64,000 nucleotides of DNA from a bacterium (GTDB lineage: Bacteria; Patescibacteriota; Minisyncoccia; Phycocordibacterales; UBA5272), in contig JAYVHM010000001.1 of assembly GCA_043771335.1 (NCBI GenBank), positions 92,901 through 156,900 on the forward strand, given 5' to 3'. The notes beneath the pieces are model-generated. The model worked only from the letters and a program-made list of their open reading frames with translations, was not told the DNA's origin and searched no databases. Made by a program: the position numbers and the translations under genes. Of this stretch, positions 6,738 to 64,000 are shown one piece after another. Position 1 is the first letter of the stretch; the number at the start of each line of letters is the position of its first letter.

Positions 6738-9332
6738 TTATTTATTTTTCAAGACTTTCTTCAAATACTTTCCAGTATGCGAGTTTTTATTATTAGCTAC
6801 GTCCTCTGGAGTGCCGTGAGCTACCAAGTTACCACCACCGACTCCACCCTCTGGTCCTATGTCCATGATATAGTCTGCGTTTTTTATAATATCAAGATTA
6901 TGCTCGATAAGCACTACAGTATTACCTTTGTCTACTAATTTATTTAAAATCTCTATAAGCTTTGCAATATCATCATAATGCAGTCCTATAGACGGCTCAT
7001 CTAAAAGATATATAGTTTTTTCTACGTGTGGTCTGTAAAGTTCTGAAGAAATTTTAACTCTTTGAGCCTCTCCTCCTGATAATGTGGTCGCACTTTGGCC
7101 AAGTTTTAAATATCCAAGACCTACGTCATTCATACTTTTAATACGATCATGTATCGCTGGTATATCCTCAAAAAAAGTTAAGGCCTCTTCTACTGTTAGC
7201 TCTAATATTTCATAAATATTTTTCCCTTTCCATTTTACTTCGAGAGTCTCCTTCATGAATCTCTTACCATTACAAACATCACAAGTCACATATACTGTTG
7301 GCAGGAAATGCATCTCCACAGCTATCTCACCATTACCGTCACATGCCTCACAGCGACCACCAGGAACATTAAAAGAGAATCGGCCAGCTTTCCACCCACG
7401 TAGTCTCGCCTCCTCTGTCTCACAGAAAATATCACGTATATGACCCCATGCTCCGGTATAAGTTGCTGGATTAGACCTTGGTGTTCTACCTATTGCAGAC
7501 TGATCTATTAAAACTAAACGTGATAAATATTCAGAGCCGGTAAAACTTTCACAGTTAAATGTCTTTGCACTTCTCTGTCTTTTTTCTAATCTAGCTTCTA
7601 GATTTCTATTTATTACTTCATACATAAGAGTAGACTTTCCAGATCCAGAGACACCAGTAATCACACTCATAACTTTTAGTGGGACTTTTACATCCATATT
7701 TTTAATATTAAAAGCATTCGCACCTTTTATTATTAATTCACCATGTTTTTCACGTCTATTTTTGCTATAAGGTATAGACACCTCACCACGAAGATAAGCA
7801 AGTGTTCTTGATTTTGATTTATTAGTTTTTGCAGTGAGCAAGTCTTCTAGATAATCAGCAACTATAACCTGACCACCATGCACTCCTGCCGCTGGACCAA
7901 TCTCAACCATAAAATCGCTGGCAAAAATAGTGTCTTCATCATGCTCAACCACGATAATAGTATTACCCATATCACGTAGCTCAGTTAAAGTTTTTATCAA
8001 TCTATCATTGTCTCTCTGATGTAAGCCAATAGTCGGCTCATCCAATACATATAATGCACCCACTAACTTACTTCCGAGTTGTGAAGCGAGTCTTATTCTC
8101 TGTGCTTCACCACCCGATAGGGTGTCGGCACGCCTGTTAAGTTGCAAATAATTAAGTCCCACATTCAACATAAAAACTAATCTACTTTGTATCTCAGAAA
8201 TTACCACTTTTGCTATTTCTTTTTCTTTGTCAGTTAGATTTAAATTATCAAAATATTTTCTAGCATCCTCAATAGACAAGTCAGTAACATCTACTATATT
8301 TATCTTGTTCTCATCATCAAGAAAAACATTGAGCGCTTCTTTTCTTAGTCTCTTTCCATTACAATCTTCACATGGGTCCAGTGCTCCCATGTACTTTACA
8401 CCGAGACCATTACAAGACACACATGCCCCATAAGGTGAGTTAAAAGAAAATAATCTCGGCTCTATCTCAGGAAAAGAAAATCCACAATTAGCACAAGAAA
8501 ACTTATTGCTCATAATATTTTTCTCACCAAGTATGTCGAACTCTACCAGACCGTCACTCTCTGTTACTGCGCGCTCTACTGCTTCATTTAACCTCATTAA
8601 GGCATCTTTGTTCTTATCTTTTAACTTAAACTCATCTATTGCTATCTCATCTACTATTAGTGATATTTCATGTTTTTTATTTTTATCCATTTCTATTCTC
8701 TCACGCAGACTTTTTCTCTCACCATCAATCATAATCTCAGTGTAACCTTTTCCTAAAAAGTCGTACAACATCTGATAATGCTCACCTTTTCTGCCACGTA
8801 TTATAGGAGAAAGTATCACTACATTTTTATGAGAAAACTCTACCCCCATCACAGACTTTTTTATATCTTCGTATTTTACTTTTTTGATTTTCTCTAATAC
8901 AAAGTTGATAATCTCTTCATTACTTAATCTCTGTATTTTACTTCCACAGTCCACACAGTATGGCTTGCCGACACGAGCATACAAAACTCTCAAGTAGTCA
9001 TATATCTCAGTGATGGTCGCAACTGTCGAGCGGGGATTTCTGCCTGCTGATTTCTGATCTATTGATATTGCTGGTGACAGGCCGACTATCTCATCTACGT
9101 CAGGCTTTTGCATTTGATTTAAAAATTGTCTAGCATAAGCGCTCAGACTCTCTACATACCTCCTCTGACCTTCAGCAAAAATAGTATCAAAAGCAAGTGA
9201 AGATTTTCCGCTACCAGAAAGGCCAGTAAAAACAATCATTTTATTCCTTGGCAATTCTACTGTTATATTTTTTAGATTATGTGTGCGGGCACCACGAACT
9301 ATTATCTTTTCTATTTCTTTACTCTTACTCAT
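6738..9332 (-). CDS. uvrA: Excinuclease ABC subunit A
   Basis: Two ABC modules ([23 protein letters not shown] x2) and Zn-finger Cys pairs. Start at MSKSKEIEK; the MLYNLY N-terminus in the track comes from reading through the promoter -10. Confidence 0.9.
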
Positions 9333-9405
9333 ATTTAGCTTTTTCTTATATAGATTATACAACAAAAAAGACTAATTCACAATACAAAAAATGAGTACAA
9401 ATAAT

Positions 9406-9433
9406 TTGCTTTATTCTATATTATTGCTATAAT
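9406..9433 (+). promoter_or_regulatory. Sigma70-like promoter (TTGCTT-16-TATAAT); ATG 7 nt downstream, so a leaderless transcript
   Basis: TTGCTT at 9406..9411 and TATAAT at 9428..9433; ATG at 9441. Confidence 0.45.
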
Positions 9434-9440
9434 TAGTATT

Positions 9441-9728
9441 ATGTCATTAGAAAAAATAGGTGCATTCACTGAAAACTTAGCAAAATCAATATTTGGAAAG
9501 ACTTTGGAGAGAAAAGATATCTATGAAGCTGGTAATAGCTTTGTAAATAATACGACTAAGAAAAGATTCGTAGTAACTGGAACATTTAATGGTGTAGTAG
9601 AATATGTAGAATTAGACTTAAAAGATCACTTTGAATTTAAAGCCATGGATTTTGTAAGCATAGAAAAAAATAAAACTCCTATGGAGAATTTTGAAAAAAC
9701 GCTCTTAGATCTTGGTTATCAATTATAA
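9441..9728 (+). CDS. Hypothetical small protein (95 aa)
   Basis: Clean ORF with its own promoter and terminator. Confidence 0.4.
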   Translation: MSLEKIGAFTENLAKSIFGKTLERKDIYEAGNSFVNNTTKKRFVVTGTFNGVVEYVELDLKDHFEFKAMDFVSIEKNKTPMENFEKTLLDLGYQL

Positions 9729-9738
9729 TCACTAAAAT

Positions 9739-9780
9739 AAAATAGCGGCGCCTTCGGCGCCGCTATTTTATTTTGTTTTA
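9739..9780 (+). terminator. Rho-independent terminator (AAAATAGCGGCGCC-ttcg-GGCGCCGCTATTTT plus T-run)
   Basis: 14-bp stem, ttcg tetraloop, followed by tttattttg. Confidence 0.75.
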
Positions 9781-9834
9781 AAAGCCTATATAATTACTAA
9801 AGCTGAAACAAAATAATCCTAAAAAATATTTAGA

Positions 9835-10491
9835 TTATTTTACATCAACTGATTTTAATATATCAGATACTTCAGCATTATTTACTGTCGCACTTTCTAC
9901 ATATATTAACCAATCTTTGTTAGTGGCAGTTTTAAGATGCCATTCTGTAGCACCGCTCTCTGCTCTGGTCCATACAGATGATCCGTAATCAGCATTAGCA
10001 GGTGCACTGATATTTGGCACTGATTTTTTAATAGTCTCAGTAACATACTCCTCAGGAGTAGCACCACGTGCACCATTAAAATAAAAATACACAGTCGCAA
10101 CTTTTTCTCCTTTTGCATTATTTACAGTATAAAGATTTGCAGTTTTAGCAGAAGTCGTGACACTGTTCACATCGCTGTAATCAAAAGTAGCTTCTGCATT
10201 ATTATCTCCTTCAAAATTATGTTTTAAAGAAGTGTCAAAAGTCGTAAGGACAGCATTAGTGGTCGTGCTCATGCTATTTTCTATTTTTATGTTAGACATT
10301 TTAGATCTTTTCATAAGGTGCAATGCTCCCTTAGCAATAGCATAACCAAGAGCGAGCCCAAGGACAGCATATAATGCAAGTGATGCATACATTTTCAAAT
10401 TTTTCTTTTCTAAAAGATTCTTAGAATTAGAATTATTATTGTTATTATTATTATTGTTGTTATTATTTGACATATGTTTTAGTGTGTACAC
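9835..10491 (-). CDS. Membrane-anchored or secreted hypothetical protein with an N-terminal poly-Asn tract
   Basis: N13 run followed by TM/signal helix MYASLALYAVLGLALGYAIA. The true start may be the internal Met at about 10392. Confidence 0.4.
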   Translation of the reverse strand: MYTLKHMSNNNNNNNNNNNNSNSKNLLEKKNLKMYASLALYAVLGLALGYAIAKGALHLMKRSKMSNIKIENSMSTTTNAVLTTFDTSLKHNFEGDNNAEATFDYSDVNSVTTSAKTANLYTVNNAKGEKVATVYFYFNGARGATPEEYVTETIKKSVPNISAPANADYGSSVWTRAESGATEWHLKTATNKDWLIYVESATVNNAEVSDILKSVDVK

Positions 10492-23271: not shown

Positions 23272-23279
23272 TTTATTTG

Positions 23280-23353
23280 TGTCGATGGGTGGGATCGAAC
23301 CACCGACCTTAGCTTTATGAGTGCTATGCTCTAACCAACTGAGCTACATCGAC
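23280..23353 (-). tRNA. tRNA with CAT anticodon (Met or Ile2; elongator-like, G1-C72 paired)
   Basis: Reverse complement gives GTCGATG-TA-GCTCAGTTGGTTAGAGC-A-TAGCA-CTCATAA-AGCTA-AGGTC-GGTGGTTCGATCCCACC-CATCGAC-A. Perfect acceptor, D and T arms; the anticodon stem has one A-A mismatch; CCA not encoded. Confidence 0.7.
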
Positions 23354-23397
23354 ATAAGGTGGTGAGCAATGCAAAGCATTACCCAGACCTATCCTTG

Positions 23398-23467
23398 TTG
23401 CGGAAACTGGAATCGAACCAGTGTCCCGAGGTTATGAGCCTCGTGAGTTACCTCTACTCTATTCCGC
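23398..23467 (-). tRNA. tRNA-like gene with CAT anticodon (short D-arm; Met/fMet/Ile2 undetermined)
   Basis: Reverse complement gives GCGGAAT..GAGT-AGAGGTA-ACTC-A-CGAGG-CTCATAA-CCTCG-GGAC-ACTGGTTCGATTCCAGT-TTCCGCAA. The T-loop (TTCGATT) and anticodon arm are clean; the acceptor or D spacing is atypical and needs tRNAscan. Confidence 0.5.
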
Positions 23468-23505
23468 TATGTTTTCAAGAAAATTAATACTTTTCAAGAG
23501 CTTTC

Positions 23506-56733: not shown

Positions 56734-58569
56734 TTAATGATGGCCCAAAACTTGATTAGTGTGTCTCTTGTGTATCATTTTCTTGTATATATTTCTACCT
56801 AGTATATATAATATTACAAAAAGAATAATACATAATAATAGCTTGAACAGCCAACCACTCCAGAACATTGACTGACTAGAACCCTCACTTGAAGTATTAA
56901 GAGACTTGTCAGTAACTGTAGATATTATGTAAGTGCTAGATTCGTCACTTATCTCATTGTTATTTTCGTCGAGAAGATCGTAAGTTGCTAATGCTGATAC
57001 TATTAAACTTTTTCCTGTAGCCACATTTTTATCTGCTTTTAATTTTAAAATCACAACCCCTTCTTCACCTGCTTTTATTTTATTTATTTCTACAGATATG
57101 GTATTCTCGGCACCAACAGAATAATCTCTTGACGATACTGCTGTCATACCTTCTGGAACTTTTATTGTAAATAAAACATTGTTAACAGTTAACTCACTTT
57201 TATTTTTATAACTTAACTCGTATTCAGAAGTCTCACCAGCATAGACATAATTTGTTTTATTTTCTATGGCTAATAACATTAATTTATCACCCTCTTTTAA
57301 GCTTTCTGTATTACCTTCTGAATCTTTACATATTACTGTAGATTTTACAGTTTTTGTAACTTTTGTGCTTACTTTTTTCACCTGCTCTTCTCTTACTGTT
57401 GAGACGTATCTTTTTGCTTCTGATAAAGTTTTAAAACTTAATATATCACCCCTGTAGGTCCCATTGGAATTTCTAATAACAGCTCGGCAATAATATGTGG
57501 TATCTGGTTTTAAATTAGTTATAGTATTAGAAAAAGAAATAGATTCATCACCAATATCCCCAGAATTAGTAACCTTACCTAGGTCTCTGGTGCTACCATA
57601 TTCAAAATATCCATTAGTGTCTAATCCACTGTGAATATTATCTAAGGCGTTACATCTGGCACTATTCAAGCCTATTTGATTTATATTGGTAGTTATAACA
57701 CTGTCTCTATCTCTATAATTGACTGTGTATGTATTTTGAGTTGACTGAGTGCGTGTGGCATAGGTCTGCATATTGTTACTGCCCGATGGACAGTTTTCAT
57801 TTTCTGGTATATCTTTTCCATTTGCTGATCCACCCCAACAAACCTTTGTACACACTTCATAAAAATTAACCTGACTTCCATCTTTACAATTTTTCTTAAT
57901 AGGCATACAGTTTTGTCCTGAGACATTATAATTAGCTGGGCACACTACTCTTGGTGCGGTAGGTGTGTTATTATATGTTTGAGTGTAGCCATTACCTCCA
58001 CCCCAAATAGTAGGCGTTGGCGGGACATAAGCAACAGGCATTGGAGTTGGTGTATTGTAAACTACAATAGGCTTATATGTTGTAGTGTAGCCATTACCTC
58101 CACCCCAGTTAGTGACTGCAGAAGGAGTGTAAGGAGTTGAGGGTGTGGGTGTAGTATATATAGGAGAAGGTTTATATGTTGTAGTGTAGCCATTACCTCC
58201 ACCACCCCAATTAGTTACAGCAGGAGGAGAATAAGTAACATTAACACCAGTACCCCCTGTATATGTAGGAGTATTGTTATAGGTTGGACTATTCGTATAT
58301 ACTGGATTATTATTGTTTGTAGGGGATGTATACACTGGCGAATTATTAACAGGGCAAGAATAAGGCACAGTTACAAATATACCATCACCACAATCAACCT
58401 GCACAGGGTTATTTGTTGTGGGTGTTGTGTATATAGGATCTGGCTCTGGAGCTGTAACACAGCTAGGACAATCTAAATCAAAATCGTCACCAAATTCAGA
58501 ATAAGAAAAATTAAAAATTAATGTTAATAAAAGAAGGTTGAATAATATATTTTTAAGAATTTTTTTCAT
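56734..58569 (-). CDS. Cell-surface protein: signal peptide, Thr/Pro/Tyr-rich WGGGNGYTTTYKP repeats, Fn3-like domain, DUF11-like domain, C-terminal TM anchor
   Basis: Signal peptide LLLLTLIFNFSYS; three tandem repeats; Fn3-like TNGYFEYGST...TTYYCRAV; C-terminal WLFKLLLCIILFVILYILG. Confidence 0.55.
   Translation of the reverse strand: MKKILKNILFNLLLLTLIFNFSYSEFGDDFDLDCPSCVTAPEPDPIYTTPTTNNPVQVDCGDGIFVTVPYSCPVNNSPVYTSPTNNNNPVYTNSPTYNNTPTYTGGTGVNVTYSPPAVTNWGGGGNGYTTTYKPSPIYTTPTPSTPYTPSAVTNWGGGNGYTTTYKPIVVYNTPTPMPVAYVPPTPTIWGGGNGYTQTYNNTPTAPRVVCPANYNVSGQNCMPIKKNCKDGSQVNFYEVCTKVCWGGSANGKDIPENENCPSGSNNMQTYATRTQSTQNTYTVNYRDRDSVITTNINQIGLNSARCNALDNIHSGLDTNGYFEYGSTRDLGKVTNSGDIGDESISFSNTITNLKPDTTYYCRAVIRNSNGTYRGDILSFKTLSEAKRYVSTVREEQVKKVSTKVTKTVKSTVICKDSEGNTESLKEGDKLMLLAIENKTNYVYAGETSEYELSYKNKSELTVNNVLFTIKVPEGMTAVSSRDYSVGAENTISVEINKIKAGEEGVVILKLKADKNVATGKSLIVSALATYDLLDENNNEISDESSTYIISTVTDKSLNTSSEGSSQSMFWSGWLFKLLLCIILFVILYILGRNIYKKMIHKRHTNQVLGHH
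57969..58224. repeat. Tandem ~80-bp coding repeats (WGGGNGYTTTYKP units)
   Basis: ggtgtagtgtagccattacctccacccca recurs three times. Confidence 0.6.
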
Positions 58570-58571
58570 AT

Positions 58572-59288
58572 TTATTTTTTACACATACCTTCTGGACATG
58601 GTGGACACAGTGGCTCTCCAACATAAAGCCTATTAAAACATTCTGCGATATATGTCTGCTTCACTCCATTTACGTCTCTGGTATATAACTCTGTACCCTT
58701 TTTTAACACAACAAAACCCTTAGTCATAAAATCTTCTCCATTTGCACCCTGTATCTCTCCTACAGAAAGATAATCTGCTTTTAAATTAAATTTTCGCAAT
58801 CCTTCCACTTCCAAAAACTTAACTTCGTCCCCTTTATATTTTTTGATTATACTATTGATGTTGTCAAAAGATTTTGGCTTATAGTATTTTGCTTCATTTT
58901 TTTGGAACTCTCCTGCATGCCAGTCTTTTACTATTTTTTCTAAATCATTATAGACGCTAAGGTCATCTGCTTTTGGATTTTTAAGTATATGTGGGATATT
59001 TTTATTATTTAAAAATTCTTGGAATTTTCTTTTGCTTATCTGATTATTGGCAAAAGCCTGCACCTCGTCTTTTGCTTGCACTTCTTCTGACAAAAATCCA
59101 AGACTGAGGCTAGTGGCAACTACCCCTGCAGCTAACTTTCCAGCACCACCTAAAAAACCTCTTCTACTAAGAACCTCTTCTTCTCCCTCATTTACTTTTT
59201 GTGTGTCAGATAATATGCCTGCAAGAGTCGCTAGGTGTGGTGGCATTCCTAAAATTTGCTTTATATTCATAATGTAATTATCCCACAT
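58572..59288 (-). CDS. Tat-signal secreted protein with C-terminal CPPCPEGMC motif
   Basis: SRRGFLGGAG twin-arginine motif followed by a hydrophobic h-region and AKD cleavage-like site. Confidence 0.5.
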   Translation of the reverse strand: MWDNYIMNIKQILGMPPHLATLAGILSDTQKVNEGEEEVLSRRGFLGGAGKLAAGVVATSLSLGFLSEEVQAKDEVQAFANNQISKRKFQEFLNNKNIPHILKNPKADDLSVYNDLEKIVKDWHAGEFQKNEAKYYKPKSFDNINSIIKKYKGDEVKFLEVEGLRKFNLKADYLSVGEIQGANGEDFMTKGFVVLKKGTELYTRDVNGVKQTYIAECFNRLYVGEPLCPPCPEGMCKK

Positions 59289-59367: not shown

Positions 59368-61629
59368 TTAATGAGAAGTGTTGTCATTAGAACCTAAACC
59401 CTTAACGTCTCTTAATATTACTCTACCTAACACGAACAATATCATTATTAGTGCTAAAATAGCTACCCACTCTAACAATGTGCTCGGCAATACACTTATT
59501 GATTTTGAAGATTTTTCAATATCATTAGTTTTTGTATTTGAGTCTTTGTTTGTGTCAGTTACCGTAGAAATAACATAAGCAGTTACTTCATCTTTTAAAG
59601 TTTTACCTTTTGTATCTAATACTTCGTAAGATAAGTAAGAATTAAGTACTAAGCTTTTTCCGGCTGTAGCGTTATCATCAACTTTTAATTTGATGATTTT
59701 CTCTACCGTTTCTCCTGTTCTCACTCTTGCATCCTCTATAGTAATAGAGTTTTCAATAGCATCATACTCTCCGATATTCTTATCAACAAAAGTCATATCT
59801 TTTGGAGCTGTAATTTTGGCTATCACATTAGAGAGTGTTAGCTCTGAAGTATTTTTATAAGTTACTTTATAGTCTACAACACCTCCTTTTGTGATTTGAT
59901 TAGAGATAGCCTCTATCCTTACTGTCGCTAACTTCTCACCGCTTTTGATAATATCCTTATTACCATCTACGTCTTGGCAAGTAATGTCTATACCACCTTT
60001 ATCTGATTTTGGTGCTACATAAGTTATTACTTTTTTACTTTTTACATAAGTTACTACTTGTTTTGGTTTTGGAGCTGTGACTACTGGTATGTATTTTACA
60101 TAATCACTTGCTGTTCTAAAGCTCATAAGTTCACCCTTGTAAGTACCGTTTGCATTTACTATAACTGCTCTACAATAATATAAAGTATTTGGTTTAAGAT
60201 TAGTTATAAGGCTTGAGTATTGAGTGTTCATTTGATTGCCAATATTACCAGAATTAGTATTATGTCCAAGTGATTGAGTGGCTCCATACTCAAAGTATCC
60301 ATTAGTGTTAACCCCATTAGCTATCATCGCTACACCATTACACTTTGCACTGTTTTGCATGATTTGTGTTGGTACGGTAGTAACTACTCTGTGATTAATG
60401 GTTATTATATTTCTACAATAGTTATTGTAATCATTTTGAGAATAATAAGTTCTGCTATTTACAGTACAATACCAAGTTGGTGCAGTTACAGTTTTACAGT
60501 AGTTACTGTACTCATTTTCAGTGGTATAATAATATCCATTAATAGAACAGTATTTTTTACATCCATCAGCGTATGATTGATTGGTGGAATATGTCTGACC
60601 ATTTAATGCACAATACATTGTAGTTGGAGCTTTACAGATATTATTAAATTCATTCTGAGTATTATAATAGTATCCATTGTAAGTACAGTATAATCTACAT
60701 CCTGTATTATATGAATCTTGTGTATTATAAGTAGATCCATTTAATGAACAATACCAAGTCTGAGTATTTTTACAATAAGCATCATAAGCAGATTGTGATG
60801 AGTAGTATTGACCATTAATAGAACAATATATATTCACTACTGGAGCTTTACAGTAATTATTAAAGTCTGATTGAGAGTTATAATAATATCCATTAATAGA
60901 ACAGTATTTTTTACATCCATCAGCATAAGACTGTTGAGAATTATAAGTCTGTCCATTTAACGCACAATATAAGTTAACTACATTTTTACAATTAGCATCG
61001 TAAGTTGCTTGCGAGTTATAGTATTGACCGTTAATCGCACAATATATTCTAACTTCTGGAGCTTTACAATAATTGTTAAAGTCTGACTGAGAGTGATATG
61101 TCTGTCCGTTAATAGAACAGTATAAGTTAATAACTGGTAATGATGGTGTTACTGGTGTCGGGTAAGTATATATAGGGCTTGGTGTTGTATATATGGGTGC
61201 AGGATTTGTGTATATAGGATTAGTTGGATAAGTATATATAGGGCTTGGTGTTGTATATATAGGATTAGCTGGATATGTGTACACTGGATCGTTGTATACT
61301 GGATTTGTCGGATATGTATATACTGGATCGTTGTATATAGGCTGAGTATATACTGGGTCGTTATAAATTGGATCAGTATACACTGGGTCATTAGTGTATG
61401 TATTACAACTTCCATAATATTCACAACCATAAGACACCGTATCTACATTATTATTTGTGTAGCCAGTGTAATCAGTGTTGTCATAATTGTAGTCAGTAGT
61501 GTAGTTATAATCATAGTCATACTGAGCATAAACTGATTGCACTACTACAAAGTTAGCATTGAATAAAAATGCAAAAAGCATTGATGCTGTTAATGTTTTT
61601 TTACTGATATTTATAAGGATTTTTTTCAT
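59368..61629 (-). CDS. Cell-surface protein: signal peptide, P-x-Y-T repeats, ten 2-Cys ~24-aa repeats, Fn3-like domain, DUF11-like domain, C-terminal TM anchor
   Basis: Paralogous architecture to the 56734 gene; Fn3-like block is about 55% identical (TNGYFEYGAT...TLYYCRAVIVNANGTY); C-terminal LLEWVAILALIMILFVLG. Confidence 0.55.
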   Translation of the reverse strand: MKKILINISKKTLTASMLFAFLFNANFVVVQSVYAQYDYDYNYTTDYNYDNTDYTGYTNNNVDTVSYGCEYYGSCNTYTNDPVYTDPIYNDPVYTQPIYNDPVYTYPTNPVYNDPVYTYPANPIYTTPSPIYTYPTNPIYTNPAPIYTTPSPIYTYPTPVTPSLPVINLYCSINGQTYHSQSDFNNYCKAPEVRIYCAINGQYYNSQATYDANCKNVVNLYCALNGQTYNSQQSYADGCKKYCSINGYYYNSQSDFNNYCKAPVVNIYCSINGQYYSSQSAYDAYCKNTQTWYCSLNGSTYNTQDSYNTGCRLYCTYNGYYYNTQNEFNNICKAPTTMYCALNGQTYSTNQSYADGCKKYCSINGYYYTTENEYSNYCKTVTAPTWYCTVNSRTYYSQNDYNNYCRNIITINHRVVTTVPTQIMQNSAKCNGVAMIANGVNTNGYFEYGATQSLGHNTNSGNIGNQMNTQYSSLITNLKPNTLYYCRAVIVNANGTYKGELMSFRTASDYVKYIPVVTAPKPKQVVTYVKSKKVITYVAPKSDKGGIDITCQDVDGNKDIIKSGEKLATVRIEAISNQITKGGVVDYKVTYKNTSELTLSNVIAKITAPKDMTFVDKNIGEYDAIENSITIEDARVRTGETVEKIIKLKVDDNATAGKSLVLNSYLSYEVLDTKGKTLKDEVTAYVISTVTDTNKDSNTKTNDIEKSSKSISVLPSTLLEWVAILALIMILFVLGRVILRDVKGLGSNDNTSH
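60380..61125. repeat. Tandem ~72-bp (3-unit super-period ~216 bp) coding repeats encoding YCxxNGQxYxSQxxYxxxCK units
   Basis: Near-identical DNA blocks such as aatagaacagtattttttacatccatcagc recur. Confidence 0.65.
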
Positions 61630-61800
61630 AAGTTTTGTTTTTTAAATTTTTCTATATATTTTAATAATTCTCCATTTTTAACACCTATTTTAGGGTTTTA
61701 TTATTATATCATAATACTTTACAACTTGTCAAGTGCTATGTCTTACTAAAATTACTATTTTCTATATTTTACATAACACTACCATTTTTTAAGCAAAAAG

Positions 61801-61832
61801 AAAAGCCTAACTAATTTACATTAGTTAGGCTT
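61801..61832. repeat. Perfect inverted repeat AAGCCTAACTAA-tttaca-TTAGTTAGGCTT
   Basis: 12-bp stem read directly from the sequence. Confidence 0.6.
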
Positions 61833-61837
61833 ATTAA

Positions 61838-62001
61838 AGTCTATTTATAATCCGCACGACTCATTTTTGCGGTTTAAGCATATCAGTTTTTATGCTGAGA
61901 TAACTTATTGTTGACTGGAAAGTCTATTTATAATCCGCACGACTCATTTTTGCGGTTTAAGCATATCAGTTTTTATGCTGAGATAACTTATTGTTGACTG
62001 G
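61838..62001. repeat. Perfect 81-bp direct tandem duplication (two copies separated by aa)
   Basis: agtctatttataatccgcacgactcatttttgcggtttaagcatatcagtttttatgctgagataacttattgttgactgg at 61838..61918 and 61921..62001; copy 2 contains the last 12 codons of the 61966 gene. Confidence 0.9.
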
Positions 62002-62961
62002 TTTGTACTTTTCAGCAGTTACACAACCATTAGGGAGCTTGAAATGCTTAGTCATGTCTGGCCAAGCTTTCTTCTCAATCACTTCTTGGACCTTGTCGCA
62101 ATCATTCCCAGTAACTCCACCCAGTATCATGCGTGCATAGCCAGAACCTTCACCATTGGTCCAGTCAGTAACAGTAACAAGACCTGAAGTCTTGTCATGT
62201 CCAAGCTTGAACAGGCGACCATCTGTGGTACGAATACCGCAATAATCTGCATTCACTACTCCTTGAAAAGTTGCCACTGGCCGACTGCTACAACCTTGGG
62301 TGTGGCACACTTGACCAGTTACAGAATTACTTGGACGAGCGACGGAAATGTTTGGAGTAGCCCCTGGGACTTTCATTCCTGAATCATTCCAACCTTTCCA
62401 CTGATATTGGACAGTGCCTGCTACTTCAACACCCTGAATGAGATGAATTTTTTGTCCTGGTAAGTAACATAACCACTCACCACGATCATTCATTTTATCC
62501 AAAGTGCCTGAAGCTTGATCGCAAACTTTTTTTGCTTCGCATTTAGCATCACAAACAGTTTGCATCACTGTGCCCGCATGCACACCCTGCACTACACCTG
62601 GCAGCTGAGCCGTAACTGGTTCTGACATTTGATTACCAGGTAACCAGTTAGTGTAATTGGTGCATGGCGCTGCATGCCAAGCTTTGCTTGTTGGATGTTG
62701 AGCCATTTCAAAGCCAGTAGGAAGAACTACGAATTGATAACCCTGCACTGTTTCCATCTGGATACAGGTTGAGGATGTTAACTTTTCGCGCTTCCAAGAT
62801 TTTGGAGCTGGGCGGTTCAGGCTTGGTGAGTAGAACATTGATGTTCCGTCAGCAAGAGATGACTGACATTTTCCCAAATCAGCAAAGTAGATTTTGTTCT
62901 CTCCTGCTTGTACCATAAATGGAACAAGAGAGAAAAATAAAACAAAGAACCATTTTTTCAT
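61966..62961 (-). CDS. Secreted Cys-rich hypothetical protein in the higher-GC segment
   Basis: Signal peptide MKKWFFVLFFSLVPFMVQAG and about 20 Cys; codon usage is GC-rich and unlike the rest of the window. Confidence 0.45.
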   Translation of the reverse strand: MKKWFFVLFFSLVPFMVQAGENKIYFADLGKCQSSLADGTSMFYSPSLNRPAPKSWKREKLTSSTCIQMETVQGYQFVVLPTGFEMAQHPTSKAWHAAPCTNYTNWLPGNQMSEPVTAQLPGVVQGVHAGTVMQTVCDAKCEAKKVCDQASGTLDKMNDRGEWLCYLPGQKIHLIQGVEVAGTVQYQWKGWNDSGMKVPGATPNISVARPSNSVTGQVCHTQGCSSRPVATFQGVVNADYCGIRTTDGRLFKLGHDKTSGLVTVTDWTNGEGSGYARMILGGVTGNDCDKVQEVIEKKAWPDMTKHFKLPNGCVTAEKYKPVNNKLSQHKN

Positions 62962-63134
62962 GATAATTTCCTTTAAGAATAAGTAAGTTACTGGGTGCGG
63001 AATGCACTTAATTAACCTGGATCATGTACGTTGTATATTATACTCTTTTAAAACTATTTGTCAAGTAACTTACAAGAATTAGACAAAATAAAAAGCGAAG
63101 ATTTATTTTAATTTAAATCTTCGCTTTTGGTGAC

Positions 63135-63940
63135 CTAGATATTACAAACAATCAATTGACTTCCATCGGGATTTTTAATTCCTTTAGAAATCATTCTATT
63201 TGTCTCCACTTGATCTATACCGCTAACACACATTTTTTTTAACTGCTGTGTGGCGGTTGGTTTTACTGATGGTAAAGGCTTTGCATCATCTTGTTTAGGT
63301 GATGCGGGCGATTTTACCGCAGGCGGAGGGACTGGTGCTGCTTTTGGTATCACCGGTGACGCAGGCACTACAACTGCCGGAGCAGGAGGAGTAACTTGTG
63401 GCACCGGAACTACTTTTTTACAGCGCATGGACCGTTTTGACTCAAACAGTCAAGCAATTGCTTGCTTGCAGCTAACTCAGCTTTAAGTCTCGCATTGTCA
63501 GCATCAGCCAATGTGGCTAGGGCTGAGGATGAAGACGCTGCAGCGGGTACAGCTGCTGTAGAAATAGCAGTCAATGGTTTAACACTAATGTCTTTATCTG
63601 CCCATGGACGCCACGCAAGAACAAAGAGGACAATAGCACCCACCAGCATCAAAAACCAAAGTTTATACTTATCATAAACATCAATCTTTACACCGGAGAG
63701 ATGCTTAGCCACAGCATTTTCAATGTTGGTGTTCAATGCCTGAACACCAGCAGCAACATTTCCCTGAGAAGATACCCCTGACATACCTTGATTTTGATTT
63801 AAGGCAGCAGCAACACCACTCTGAGCGGCAATGTGCGTATGAGCAGACTGAATATCCATAGGATCAAATCCTTGAGCAAGAAGTGCTTGGTGATTAAGAC
63901 CCATTCTGATATGCCCTGCTATCTGTTCGATTACATTCAT
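63135..63940 (-). pseudogene. Frameshifted or split gene: N-terminal domain, TM, Ala-rich, then Pro-rich region and C-terminal domain (TolA/TonB/FimV-like architecture)
   Basis: ORFs 63410..63940 and 63135..63428 overlap in different frames at an A6 run (gtaaaaaagtag); a 1-nt change fuses ...GPCAVKK to VVPVPQVTPP... Confidence 0.4.
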
Positions 63941-64000
63941 GATTATCTCCTTTCAAAGAGTTGCGGGATCATTAGCCCGGGGATATTATCCCTAAATAAA

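Follow-up and report, generated by a model that had tools for sequence, protein, structure and literature searches.

Introduction

Several described systems display small, disulfide-stabilised or tandemly repeated domains outside the cell. Kazal-type domains (Kazal_1/Kazal_2) are extracellular, disulfide-stabilised and often tandem. Fibrillar adhesins and periscope proteins combine an anchor, Ig-like domains, tandem repeats and a distal region (PMC9210967), and DUF11 is a recognised Ig-like stalk domain (PMC9210967). TraN, a surface adhesin that stabilises mating pairs in F-type conjugation, has 22 conserved cysteines, all of them predicted to be disulfide-bonded (PMC9246713). Here we describe an array of ten tandem units, each with two cysteines (2-Cys units), in a predicted surface protein of an uncultivated bacterium of the Patescibacteriota; it lies in a 64,000-nucleotide stretch of contig JAYVHM010000001.1 (GenBank assembly GCA_043771335.1, positions 92,901 to 156,900), and this whole stretch is referred to below as the window. 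The protein likewise has an anchor, a putative Ig-like (DUF11-like) domain, tandem repeats and a distal region, but the stalk domains known from adhesins span 70-100 residues and are Ig-like or similar, whereas the unit described here has about 21 residues and, as predicted, a single disulfide.

Results

An array of ten two-cysteine units

The array occupies amino acids (aa) 170-407 of a 753-aa open reading frame (ORF) on the minus strand. The gene, the array and its units are as follows; evidence is given in brackets, where HMM stands for hidden Markov model, bba for beta-beta-alpha and dN/dS for the ratio of nonsynonymous to synonymous substitution rates.

59368..61629, minus strand: coding sequence of the 753-aa predicted surface protein with the repeat, stop codon included (ORF list; orthologues; dN/dS 0.06-0.08)
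60409..61122, minus strand: array of ten 2-Cys units (translation; unit HMM; predicted bba fold)
61060..61122, minus strand: unit 1, subtype A, YCSINGQTYHSQSDFNNYCKA; closest to unit 4, with 83% DNA identity
60982..61044, minus strand: unit 2, subtype B, YCAINGQYYNSQATYDANCKN
60907..60969, minus strand: unit 3, subtype C, YCALNGQTYNSQQSYADGCKK; 97% DNA identity to unit 3 of the orthologue L006; first unit of the modelled segment
60844..60906, minus strand: unit 4, subtype A, YCSINGYYYNSQSDFNNYCKA; within the modelled segment
60766..60828, minus strand: unit 5, subtype B, YCSINGQYYSSQSAYDAYCKN; within the modelled segment; followed by an extra unit in the orthologues L006 and L007
60691..60753, minus strand: unit 6, subtype C, YCSLNGSTYNTQDSYNTGCRL
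60628..60690, minus strand: unit 7, subtype A, YCTYNGYYYNTQNEFNNICKA
60553..60615, minus strand: unit 8, subtype C, YCALNGQTYSTNQSYADGCKK
60490..60552, minus strand: unit 9, subtype A, YCSINGYYYTTENEYSNYCKT
60409..60471, minus strand: unit 10, B-like, YCTVNSRTYYSQNDYNNYCRN; 90% and 87% DNA identity to the last units of L006 and L007, respectively

The units begin at aa 170, 196, 221, 242, 268, 293, 314, 339, 360 and 387, and all ten conform to the pattern Y-C-x16-C-[KR], giving 20 cysteines at an invariant C-x16-C spacing; a single unit is exemplified by the 23-mer LYCALNGQTYNSQQSYADGCKKY. In 20,000 shuffles of the whole protein the mean number of C-x16-C pairs was 0.78 and the maximum 5, as compared with the 10 observed. 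Subtypes follow each other in the order A-B-C-A-B-C-A-C-A-B, and Tandem Repeats Finder (TRF) reports a super-period of 216 nt (72 aa) that comprises three units (2.3 copies, 76% matches). An earlier note on this DNA, made from the letters alone, had described ten tandem 2-Cys repeats with 20 cysteines at a strict C-x16-C spacing, this subtype order and a three-unit super-period, all of which the translation, the shuffles and the repeat finder bear out. The spacing of four to eight residues that it gave between units needs correction, as the linkers from the second cysteine of one unit (Cys2) to the first of the next (Cys1) measure 3, 3, 3, 7, 7, 7, 8, 8 and 9 residues. Junctions from a C unit to an A unit form a tight C-x3-C (GCKKYC).

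Against an HMM of the unit each of the ten scores 33-48 bits. The window units also satisfy the pattern of the wider family, [YF]-C-x-[ILVY]-N-G-x-x-Y-x-[STND]-x3-[YF]-x3-C, in which both cysteines are invariant. In 69 aligned units from 18 proteins both cysteines are present in every unit (69/69), and N6, G7, Y10 and Y/F16 are nearly invariant.

A rare module outside the known families

Searches of the domain libraries did not place the repeat. Pfam returned nothing relevant to it on the isolated 244-aa array even at E<=10, NCBIfam gave no match to the repeat at the same threshold, and the units of ten relatives had no match in Pfam either. A sequence search of the PDB with the unit profile produced only a chance match of 10 residues (2kob, E 0.19). 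Literature searches on cysteine-rich surface repeats of the candidate phyla radiation (CPR), and on disulfide or zinc-free bba folds, yielded nothing specific.

The module is also very rare. When HMMER was run exhaustively over 1.84 billion cluster representatives with a profile of two units, 22 proteins reached E<=1e-3, and 14 of these E<=1e-10; their clusters hold one to four members each, and no source names them. A word-index search with the array gave three weak matches, all to PG_binding_1 proteins in which the motif occurs three or four times (P0001-P0003), and the same kind of search with the two-unit profile listed 79 candidates of which none scored, and did not recover P0001-P0003. 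With the full-length orthologue alignment as query, seven loci were found among 185,579 species-representative genomes and three among 241 million metagenome records, with no match in viral contigs; a tblastn search of annotated plasmids and phages with the array also found no match. An origin from a mobile element or phage is thus not supported. The earlier note could not assign the repeat to a known family and suggested a possibly novel disulfide-stabilised module, to be checked by comparing a unit profile with libraries and large sequence sets. That comparison has returned no family with the same cysteine framework and only the 22 rare proteins, and it supports a 2-Cys module outside existing families.

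The relatives fall into four classes. The first shares the architecture of the window protein and has 4-9 units (P0005, P0006, P0007, P0009 and P0016). The second consists of PG_binding_1 proteins with 2-4 units and other cysteine modules (P0001-P0003 and P0010-P0014), which L012 resembles. Lipoprotein-like proteins of 160-200 aa with 2-3 units form the third (P0008, P0015, P0017 and P0022); P0030, a cluster-mate of P0015, has its gene next to Fib_succ_major genes, on a contig of 1.9 Mb, and therefore probably comes from a Fibrobacter-like genome. The fourth class is marginal and includes P0019, a TraN homologue (PF06986, E 3.5e-19) with C-x16-C units, the second half of the unit being clearly helix-like (WYCPANGNTYSSEADAIAGCR), together with P0023, a eukaryotic Kazal array that matches the unit profile at E 6.6e-4. 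The metagenome scan added a second TraN-like protein, L017, with one unit; the TraN-like matches are marginal against the unit profile (E 3.3e-4). In the species-representative scan, every relative from a named genome belongs to a metagenome-assembled genome (MAG) that bears the label 'Candidatus Paceibacterota' or 'bacterium isolate GFS_...', which points to a CPR/Patescibacteria organism as the source of the window as well.

Proteins differ from one another in copy number by entire units: ten in the window protein, at least 11 in the truncated match of L006, 12 in L007, eight each in P0005 and P0006, six in P0007 and four in P0016, while single isolated units occur in P0014, P0022 and L017. 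A DsbB gene lies 4 kb from the gene of P0001. The module is real, mobile between architectures, always accompanied by extracytoplasmic partners, and very rare.

Three further observations concern the relatives. Ice binding, an idea raised by MAG names in which 'GFS' may mean glacier-fed stream, found no support, and one relative comes from a MAG labelled Gw_Eff. P0024 (660 aa), a marginal match to the unit profile, contains at least 11 repeats of about 55 residues with the pattern C-T-I-D-G-V-x-Y-x-S-x3-A-A-x2-L-G-I...FP(D/N/G)Y; these have the hairpin motif in common with the units, but only one cysteine per repeat, and we take them to resemble the DNA-binding hairpin-helix modules of homing-endonuclease-associated domains. 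The PG_binding_1 proteins P0012 and P0014 share an insert of about 110 residues between or beside the units (...Y[TF][IV]...S[IL]YS[ST]NL...K[YN]LSKN[TN]SGY[FY]D[AS]TG...SCGDGV...), which has no Pfam match and may be another unannotated domain of Paceibacterota wall proteins.

Predicted fold and disulfide

AlphaFold2 (AF2) was run on a 35-row alignment of three-unit segments, with aa 220-289 of the window protein (units 3-5) as target. The model has a mean confidence (pLDDT) of 90.1 and gives each unit two short strands and a seven-residue helix; the cysteines lie at model residues 3/20, 24/41 and 50/67, with Cys1 in strand 1 and Cys2 directly after the helix. A single-sequence run on six units had a pLDDT of 50 and is unreliable, yet it too produced a hairpin and helix for most units. 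The column statistics of the 69 aligned units fit this topology, with invariant C3 and C20, N6-G7 at the turn, S, N, T or D at position 12 as a helix cap, and Y2, Y10 and Y/F16 as the positions of a minimal aromatic core.

Strand 1 usually lies close to the C-terminus of the helix in bba folds. Two-cysteine parity, whole-unit indels, isolated units, the extracytoplasmic setting and the model topology together point to a disulfide between Cys1 and Cys2 within each module. The earlier note had expected a beta-hairpin with a disulfide; the model instead predicts a hairpin plus an alpha-helix, in which the disulfide would tie strand 1 to the end of the helix.

Age and selection of the array

The earlier note had also taken the units to be near-identical in DNA and recently homogenised. 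Identity among the 60-nt unit cores ranges from 50 to 83% with a mean of 63%, the two full 216-nt super-repeats are 74.5% identical to each other, and synonymous divergence between paralogous units is large. Furthermore, each window unit has a single counterpart, in the same order, in L006 (protein identity 85%) and in L007 (57%); the sole departure is an extra unit that both orthologues carry between window units 5 and 6, which reads as a clean whole-unit indel. In eight of the ten units (3-10), DNA identity to the positional orthologue in L006 (0.81-0.97) exceeds that to the best paralogue within the gene (0.64-0.83). Unit 1 clearly departs from this, being nearer to unit 4 (0.83) than to any L006 unit; the two have the block SQSDFNNYCKAP in common, and local unit-to-unit gene conversion may account for their closeness, the lone such sign in the array. 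The best L006 match of unit 2 is L006 unit 5 (0.84) and not its positional partner.

Nei-Gojobori dN/dS between the window protein and L006 is 0.076 for the units (dS 0.72) and 0.056 for the C-terminal domains. The units are thus under purifying selection, which together with the positional orthology argues that the array is old; recent homogenisation is refuted. The A, B and C subtypes and the tight G-C-K-K-Y-C junction from C unit to A unit recur in orthologues of 35-48% identity, which marks the super-period as ancient and upheld by selection.

These results also bear on whether there is a folded module at all, or whether the repeat is simply an artefact of composition or low complexity in an AT-rich genome, or repetitive DNA that codes for nothing. 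Tyr, Thr, Asn and Ser are extremely abundant in the protein, and the regions that flank the array are truly of low complexity, as such an artefact would have it. Nonetheless the invariant cysteine spacing is far above chance in the shuffles, the dN/dS at that dS is low, the module recurs in unrelated proteins and lineages, and AF2 models it with a pLDDT of 90, so that the artefact is effectively refuted.

Architecture of the host protein

The array forms the middle of a protein whose other parts are listed here.

61525..61629, minus strand: putative signal peptide, aa 1-35, MKKILINISKK...VQSVYA/Q (hydropathy; K-rich n-region; VYA-Q cleavage-like site by eye)
61393..61524, minus strand: distal Tyr/Asp/Asn-rich segment, aa 36-79, with the C-x5-C loop SYGCEYYGSC (sequence)
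61123..61392, minus strand: Pro/Tyr/Thr-rich spacer with short (D/N)PxYT-type repeats, aa 80-169 (TRF periods of 15-45 nt)
60109..60393, minus strand: tentative FN3-like domain, aa 413-507, HRVVTTVPT...MSFRTA (weak fn3 match, E 0.035)
59560..60000, minus strand: DUF11-like (Ig-like stalk) domain, aa 544-690 (sub-threshold DUF11 match)
59419..59487, minus strand: C-terminal transmembrane anchor, aa ~715-737 (hydropathy peak 2.7; kept in orthologues)
59371..59418, minus strand: short basic tail that ends in His, aa 738-753 (sequence)

The identical 753-aa protein is present on two independent metagenome contigs (L001 and L002). The signal peptide was called from hydropathy and inspection of the sequence; together with the C-terminal transmembrane anchor, it would make the array extracytoplasmic. 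The LPxTG motif is absent from the protein. A Pfam search of the entire 753 aa at E<=1 assigned it to no family and recognised no distal adhesive domain, and the distal 135 residues are of low complexity. The SYGCEYYGSC-type C-x5-C motif is also found in the orthologue L007 and is doubled in the variant P0004, and the counterpart of the spacer in the orthologue P0006 has a weak Extensin_1 match. The FN3-like block is the most conserved block among the orthologues and a neighbouring paralogue. Against DUF11 (PF01345), for which the cut-off is 24.6 bits, the window protein scores 12.5 bits (E 0.19), the paralogue 21.1 and the orthologue P0007 26.6. The short, predicted cytoplasmic tails after the transmembrane anchor end in one to three His in the window protein and in the P0005, P0006, P0007, P0016 and L007 proteins (...NTSH, ...KSH, ...AKHH, ...GHHH, ...GAHH and ...VNHH), which to judge from the sequences is a conserved, His tag-like C-terminal end.

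Proposed role of the array

We favour the interpretation, to which we assign a probability of roughly 0.55, that the array serves a surface adhesin as a stalk or binding array, stapled by disulfides and variable in length. It would form the middle of a C-terminally membrane-anchored surface protein of an uncultivated Paceibacterota-like (CPR/Patescibacteria) bacterium, with each unit of 21-27 residues a separate mini-domain. The hairpin Y-C-x-[IL]-N-G-x-[TY]-Y would turn at N-G and continue through a Ser/Thr/Asn/Asp cap into the seven-residue helix; the aromatics Y-1, Y+7 and Y/F+13 (relative to Cys1) would make a tiny core, and the Cys1-Cys2 disulfide would take the part that zinc plays in a classical bba zinc finger. 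Units and linkers of 3-9 residues would thereby build a covalently stabilised, protease-resistant stalk, like beads on a string, that changes in length by gain or loss of whole units and holds the Tyr/Pro-rich distal region away from the base formed by the FN3-like domain, the DUF11-like domain and the transmembrane helix. Conservation extends to the surfaces specific to the A, B and C subtypes, and on that account the array probably has a share in binding as well, its target being a ligand on the surface of a host or partner cell. A stalk or adhesion role, in the context of host attachment by CPR bacteria, is what we infer from this arrangement.

Several observations favour this interpretation. 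The partner domains of the module are extracytoplasmic (PG_binding_1, lipoprotein-like leaders and TraN); whole-unit copy differences, isolated units and unrelated architectures speak for the autonomy of the unit; and the paralogue, with the same anchor and a different ectodomain, is in keeping with the logic of a stalk. Other points weigh against it. The pairing of the cysteines is predicted from model topology and parity, and both surface location and stalk role are predictions from sequence. The distal region is of low complexity, and no adhesive domain or ligand has been recognised. The units are conserved as tightly as globular domains, more than a passive spacer needs, and they are not highly identical, unlike typical 'periscope' stalk repeats. 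Finally, no Dsb or VKOR gene was found in the 64-kb window, of which about 14 of some 57 ORFs of at least 120 aa were scanned and a CxxC motif screen was made.

The tight conservation of units and subtypes makes direct binding a serious alternative or addition: the units may be primarily ligand-binding, for a glycan, peptidoglycan or a surface protein of a partner cell, and the array a multivalent surface. The module occurs with PG_binding_1 wall proteins and TraN-like mating adhesins, across genomes its subtypes and single units are each retained at their own place, with a dN/dS of 0.076, and outside the core the variable positions abound in Tyr, Asn, Gln, Ser and Thr, as carbohydrate-binding surfaces commonly do. 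However, the units bear no likeness to any known binding domain, N/Y/S/T richness is also expected from a genome of 33% GC, and copy number varies freely among orthologues, and we regard a primarily ligand-binding function as rather unlikely.

If the prediction of a disulfide-stapled stalk or binding array holds, the units constitute a natural and undescribed mini-domain family, with 22 cluster representatives among the 1.84 billion searched, in which a single disulfide takes over from zinc in stabilising a bba fold of 20 residues, and repetition of that fold yields a surface stalk. Such a family would be relevant to domain evolution, including possible links to Kazal cores and to the cysteine-rich regions of TraN, and would offer a natural scaffold, with a conserved core and variable surface, for the engineering of peptides and mini-proteins. 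It would also aid the annotation of surface proteins in CPR/Patescibacteria, where most of the surface proteome lacks annotation and little is understood of how cells attach to hosts. The array by itself opens no major new question, and its function is a prediction.

The locus and its neighbouring genes

The locus belongs to a cellular bacterial chromosome of 33% GC. Its further features are these.

61703..61732, minus strand: promoter-like site TTGACA-18-TATAAT, 12/12, with TG before the -10 element (sigma-70-type consensus scan; pattern match)
61803..61832, minus strand: terminator-like hairpin, a 13-pair stem followed by a T-run, at the end of the upstream gene (pattern match)
58572..59288, minus strand: 238-aa gene with a twin-arginine-like signal (SRRGFLGGAGKLAA; SRRGFLGGAGKLAAG) and a C-terminal CPPCPEGMCKK (ORF list)
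56734..58569, minus strand: 611-aa paralogue with FN3-like domain, DUF11-like domain and transmembrane anchor and a different ectodomain (BLASTP)

The ATG of the repeat gene follows the promoter-like match at a distance of about 75 nt, and since the terminator-like hairpin closes the upstream gene, the repeat gene putatively starts a transcription unit of its own, as far as these pattern matches indicate. The 238-aa gene stands between the two surface-protein paralogues in the same order in L007, L001 and L002; its product has a weak DUF2118 match and nothing else in Pfam, and may be a functional partner of the surface proteins. The 611-aa paralogue is 40% identical to the window protein over the C-terminal 358 columns (BLASTP, E 1e-69), matches further towards the N-terminus being of low complexity only, and it has no 2-Cys units of the array type. 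Beyond it lie TsaE, PolA, GrpE and DnaK, and L007 keeps the gene order of the window locus.

The ectodomain of the paralogue carries three W-G-G-G-N-G-Y-T-x-T-Y repeats and other short cysteine modules such as CKDGSQVNFYEVC and CGDGIFVTVPYSCP. Longer arrays of a module of about 15 residues, of the type C-x-[NS]-G-x-x-[IV]-x5-C, are found in P0006, P0016 and the L007 paralogue; from its sequence this is probably a second unannotated 2-Cys mini-module of the protein family.

Upstream of the repeat gene, at 61836..62001, an exact tandem duplication (83 bp x 2, 100% identity) takes in the final 36 nt of the upstream gene together with some of the adjoining intergenic sequence. The independent assemblies of the same locus, L001 and L002, have one copy each, so the duplication reflects either a polymorphism among strains or an artefact of assembly in the window's source. 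A GC-richer islet extends over ~61900..64000 (0.42-0.47, against ~0.32 elsewhere) and also appears in L001 (~8000-10000) and L007 (1-2000). It holds three genes for secreted or membrane proteins, of 331 aa, 97 aa (Pro/Ala/Val-rich) and 176 aa, the first and last of which Pfam assigned to no family. The GC shift does not mark an assembly chimera, since two independent assemblies and the orthologous locus of L007 all have the junction. Elsewhere in the window, at 23279..23468 on the minus strand, two tRNA-Met (CAT) genes lie 44 nt apart; they may be an initiator and an elongator, or one may be a tRNA-Ile2 precursor.

Comparison with known families

In sequence profile the closest resemblance is to the Kazal core. 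The units and Kazal-type domains have a local motif in common, C-x2-[ND]-G-x-T-Y-x-[SN] followed by a helix, and hhalign against six Kazal domains gives a probability of 78% (E 1.8e-5) over 17 columns, with Cys1 of the unit on Kazal Cys3. It could accordingly be proposed that the units derive from Kazal-type (serine-protease-inhibitor-like) domains by degeneration, with only the hairpin-helix core left, a view to which the marginal match of the genuine eukaryotic Kazal array P0023 lends some weight. However, the unit has two cysteines in about 21 residues as compared with six in about 50, and lacks the 1-5/2-4/3-6 framework; Kazal Cys4 falls on a non-cysteine column, and Cys2 of the unit, which the alignment does not reach, is displaced from Kazal Cys5 by one position. 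The segment of the Kazal reactive-site loop, N-terminal to Cys3, is not present, its place being taken by linkers of only 3-9 residues, and the Pfam Kazal models (PF00050 and PF07648) match neither the array at E<=10 nor the full-length protein at E<=1. Convergence could, moreover, easily produce a C-x2-[ND]-G-x-T-Y hairpin with a capped helix. We therefore consider degenerate Kazal domains improbable: the sequences fail as members of the family, and the resemblance would be compatible with either remote homology or convergence. The earlier note had called the likeness to Kazal superficial on account of a mismatched cysteine framework, a judgement with which the local hhalign match and the missing six-cysteine framework agree.

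In predicted structure the nearest counterparts are C2H2 zinc fingers, which have the bba topology that the model gives the units, tandem units of 21-28 residues and the same spacing of core aromatic and hydrophobic residues. The top Foldseek matches in the PDB are all tandem C2H2 fingers (BCL11A, CTCF and Zif268), at E-values of 0.03-0.3 and a TM-score of about 0.3, which are not significant. The core of the unit, Y-C-x6-Y-x5-[YF]-x3-C, parallels the zinc-finger pattern [FY]-x-C-x2-4-C-x3-F-x5-L, with hhalign in the same register, and the cross-link from hairpin to helix end sits at the position of the zinc site. These similarities, together with the C-x3-C at the C-to-A junctions, raise the question of metal binding, in which the units would be zinc-finger-like or metallothionein-like and cysteines of neighbouring units would share a metal ion. 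Yet each unit has just two cysteines: an asparagine replaces the second cysteine of the finger, Cys2 adjoins the would-be first histidine, and the Cys2His2 ligands are missing. There is no histidine column, His being among the five commonest residues of a column only once, at column 16 of the 69-unit alignment, and the whole protein has four His. Most junctions are of 7-9 residues and not C-x3-C, and the predicted topology is extracytoplasmic, where a disulfide would replace the metal. Alignment to C2H2 fingers, whose sequences were entered by hand, has an hhalign probability of 1.1%, and no Pfam zinc finger matches the array at E<=10. Metal binding is accordingly most improbable, and the likeness to C2H2 fingers is an analogy of fold, not family membership.

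The disulfide-stapled stalk or binding array that we favour finds its architectural counterparts among the adhesins. Repeat number varies between 4 and 12 among relatives of the window protein, like that of adhesin stalk repeats. Periscope repeats are highly identical in DNA, whereas the units of the window have a mean identity of 63% and a maximum of 83%; the anchor is a C-terminal transmembrane helix in place of an LPxTG motif, and an adhesive domain is not recognised. With TraN the connection is by module: P0019 and L017 carry C-x2-N-G-x-T-Y...C (C-x16-C) units, while the TraN domain itself (PF06986) has no match in the window protein and, among the relatives checked, matches only P0019.

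De novo disulfide-constrained mini-proteins of strand-strand-helix (EEH) or bba type, and zinc-free finger designs, show that about 20-30 residues can form a metal-free bba fold with a small hydrophobic core, a disulfide or both. Those are synthetic single domains, and the 2-Cys units would be a natural, tandem version of them. More tentatively, and with more doubt than belief, one may go further and see in the units autonomously folding one-disulfide bba mini-domains of about 20 residues, a metal-free counterpart of the zinc finger and among the smallest tandem-repeat domains known, from which CPR episymbionts build a covalently stapled attachment stalk or binding array of tunable length, and which may share ancestry with the Kazal core. 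In relation to the systems described to date, the array represents an undescribed family of small domains, while the class to which it belongs, that of disulfide-stabilised extracellular repeat modules and stalk repeats, is known.

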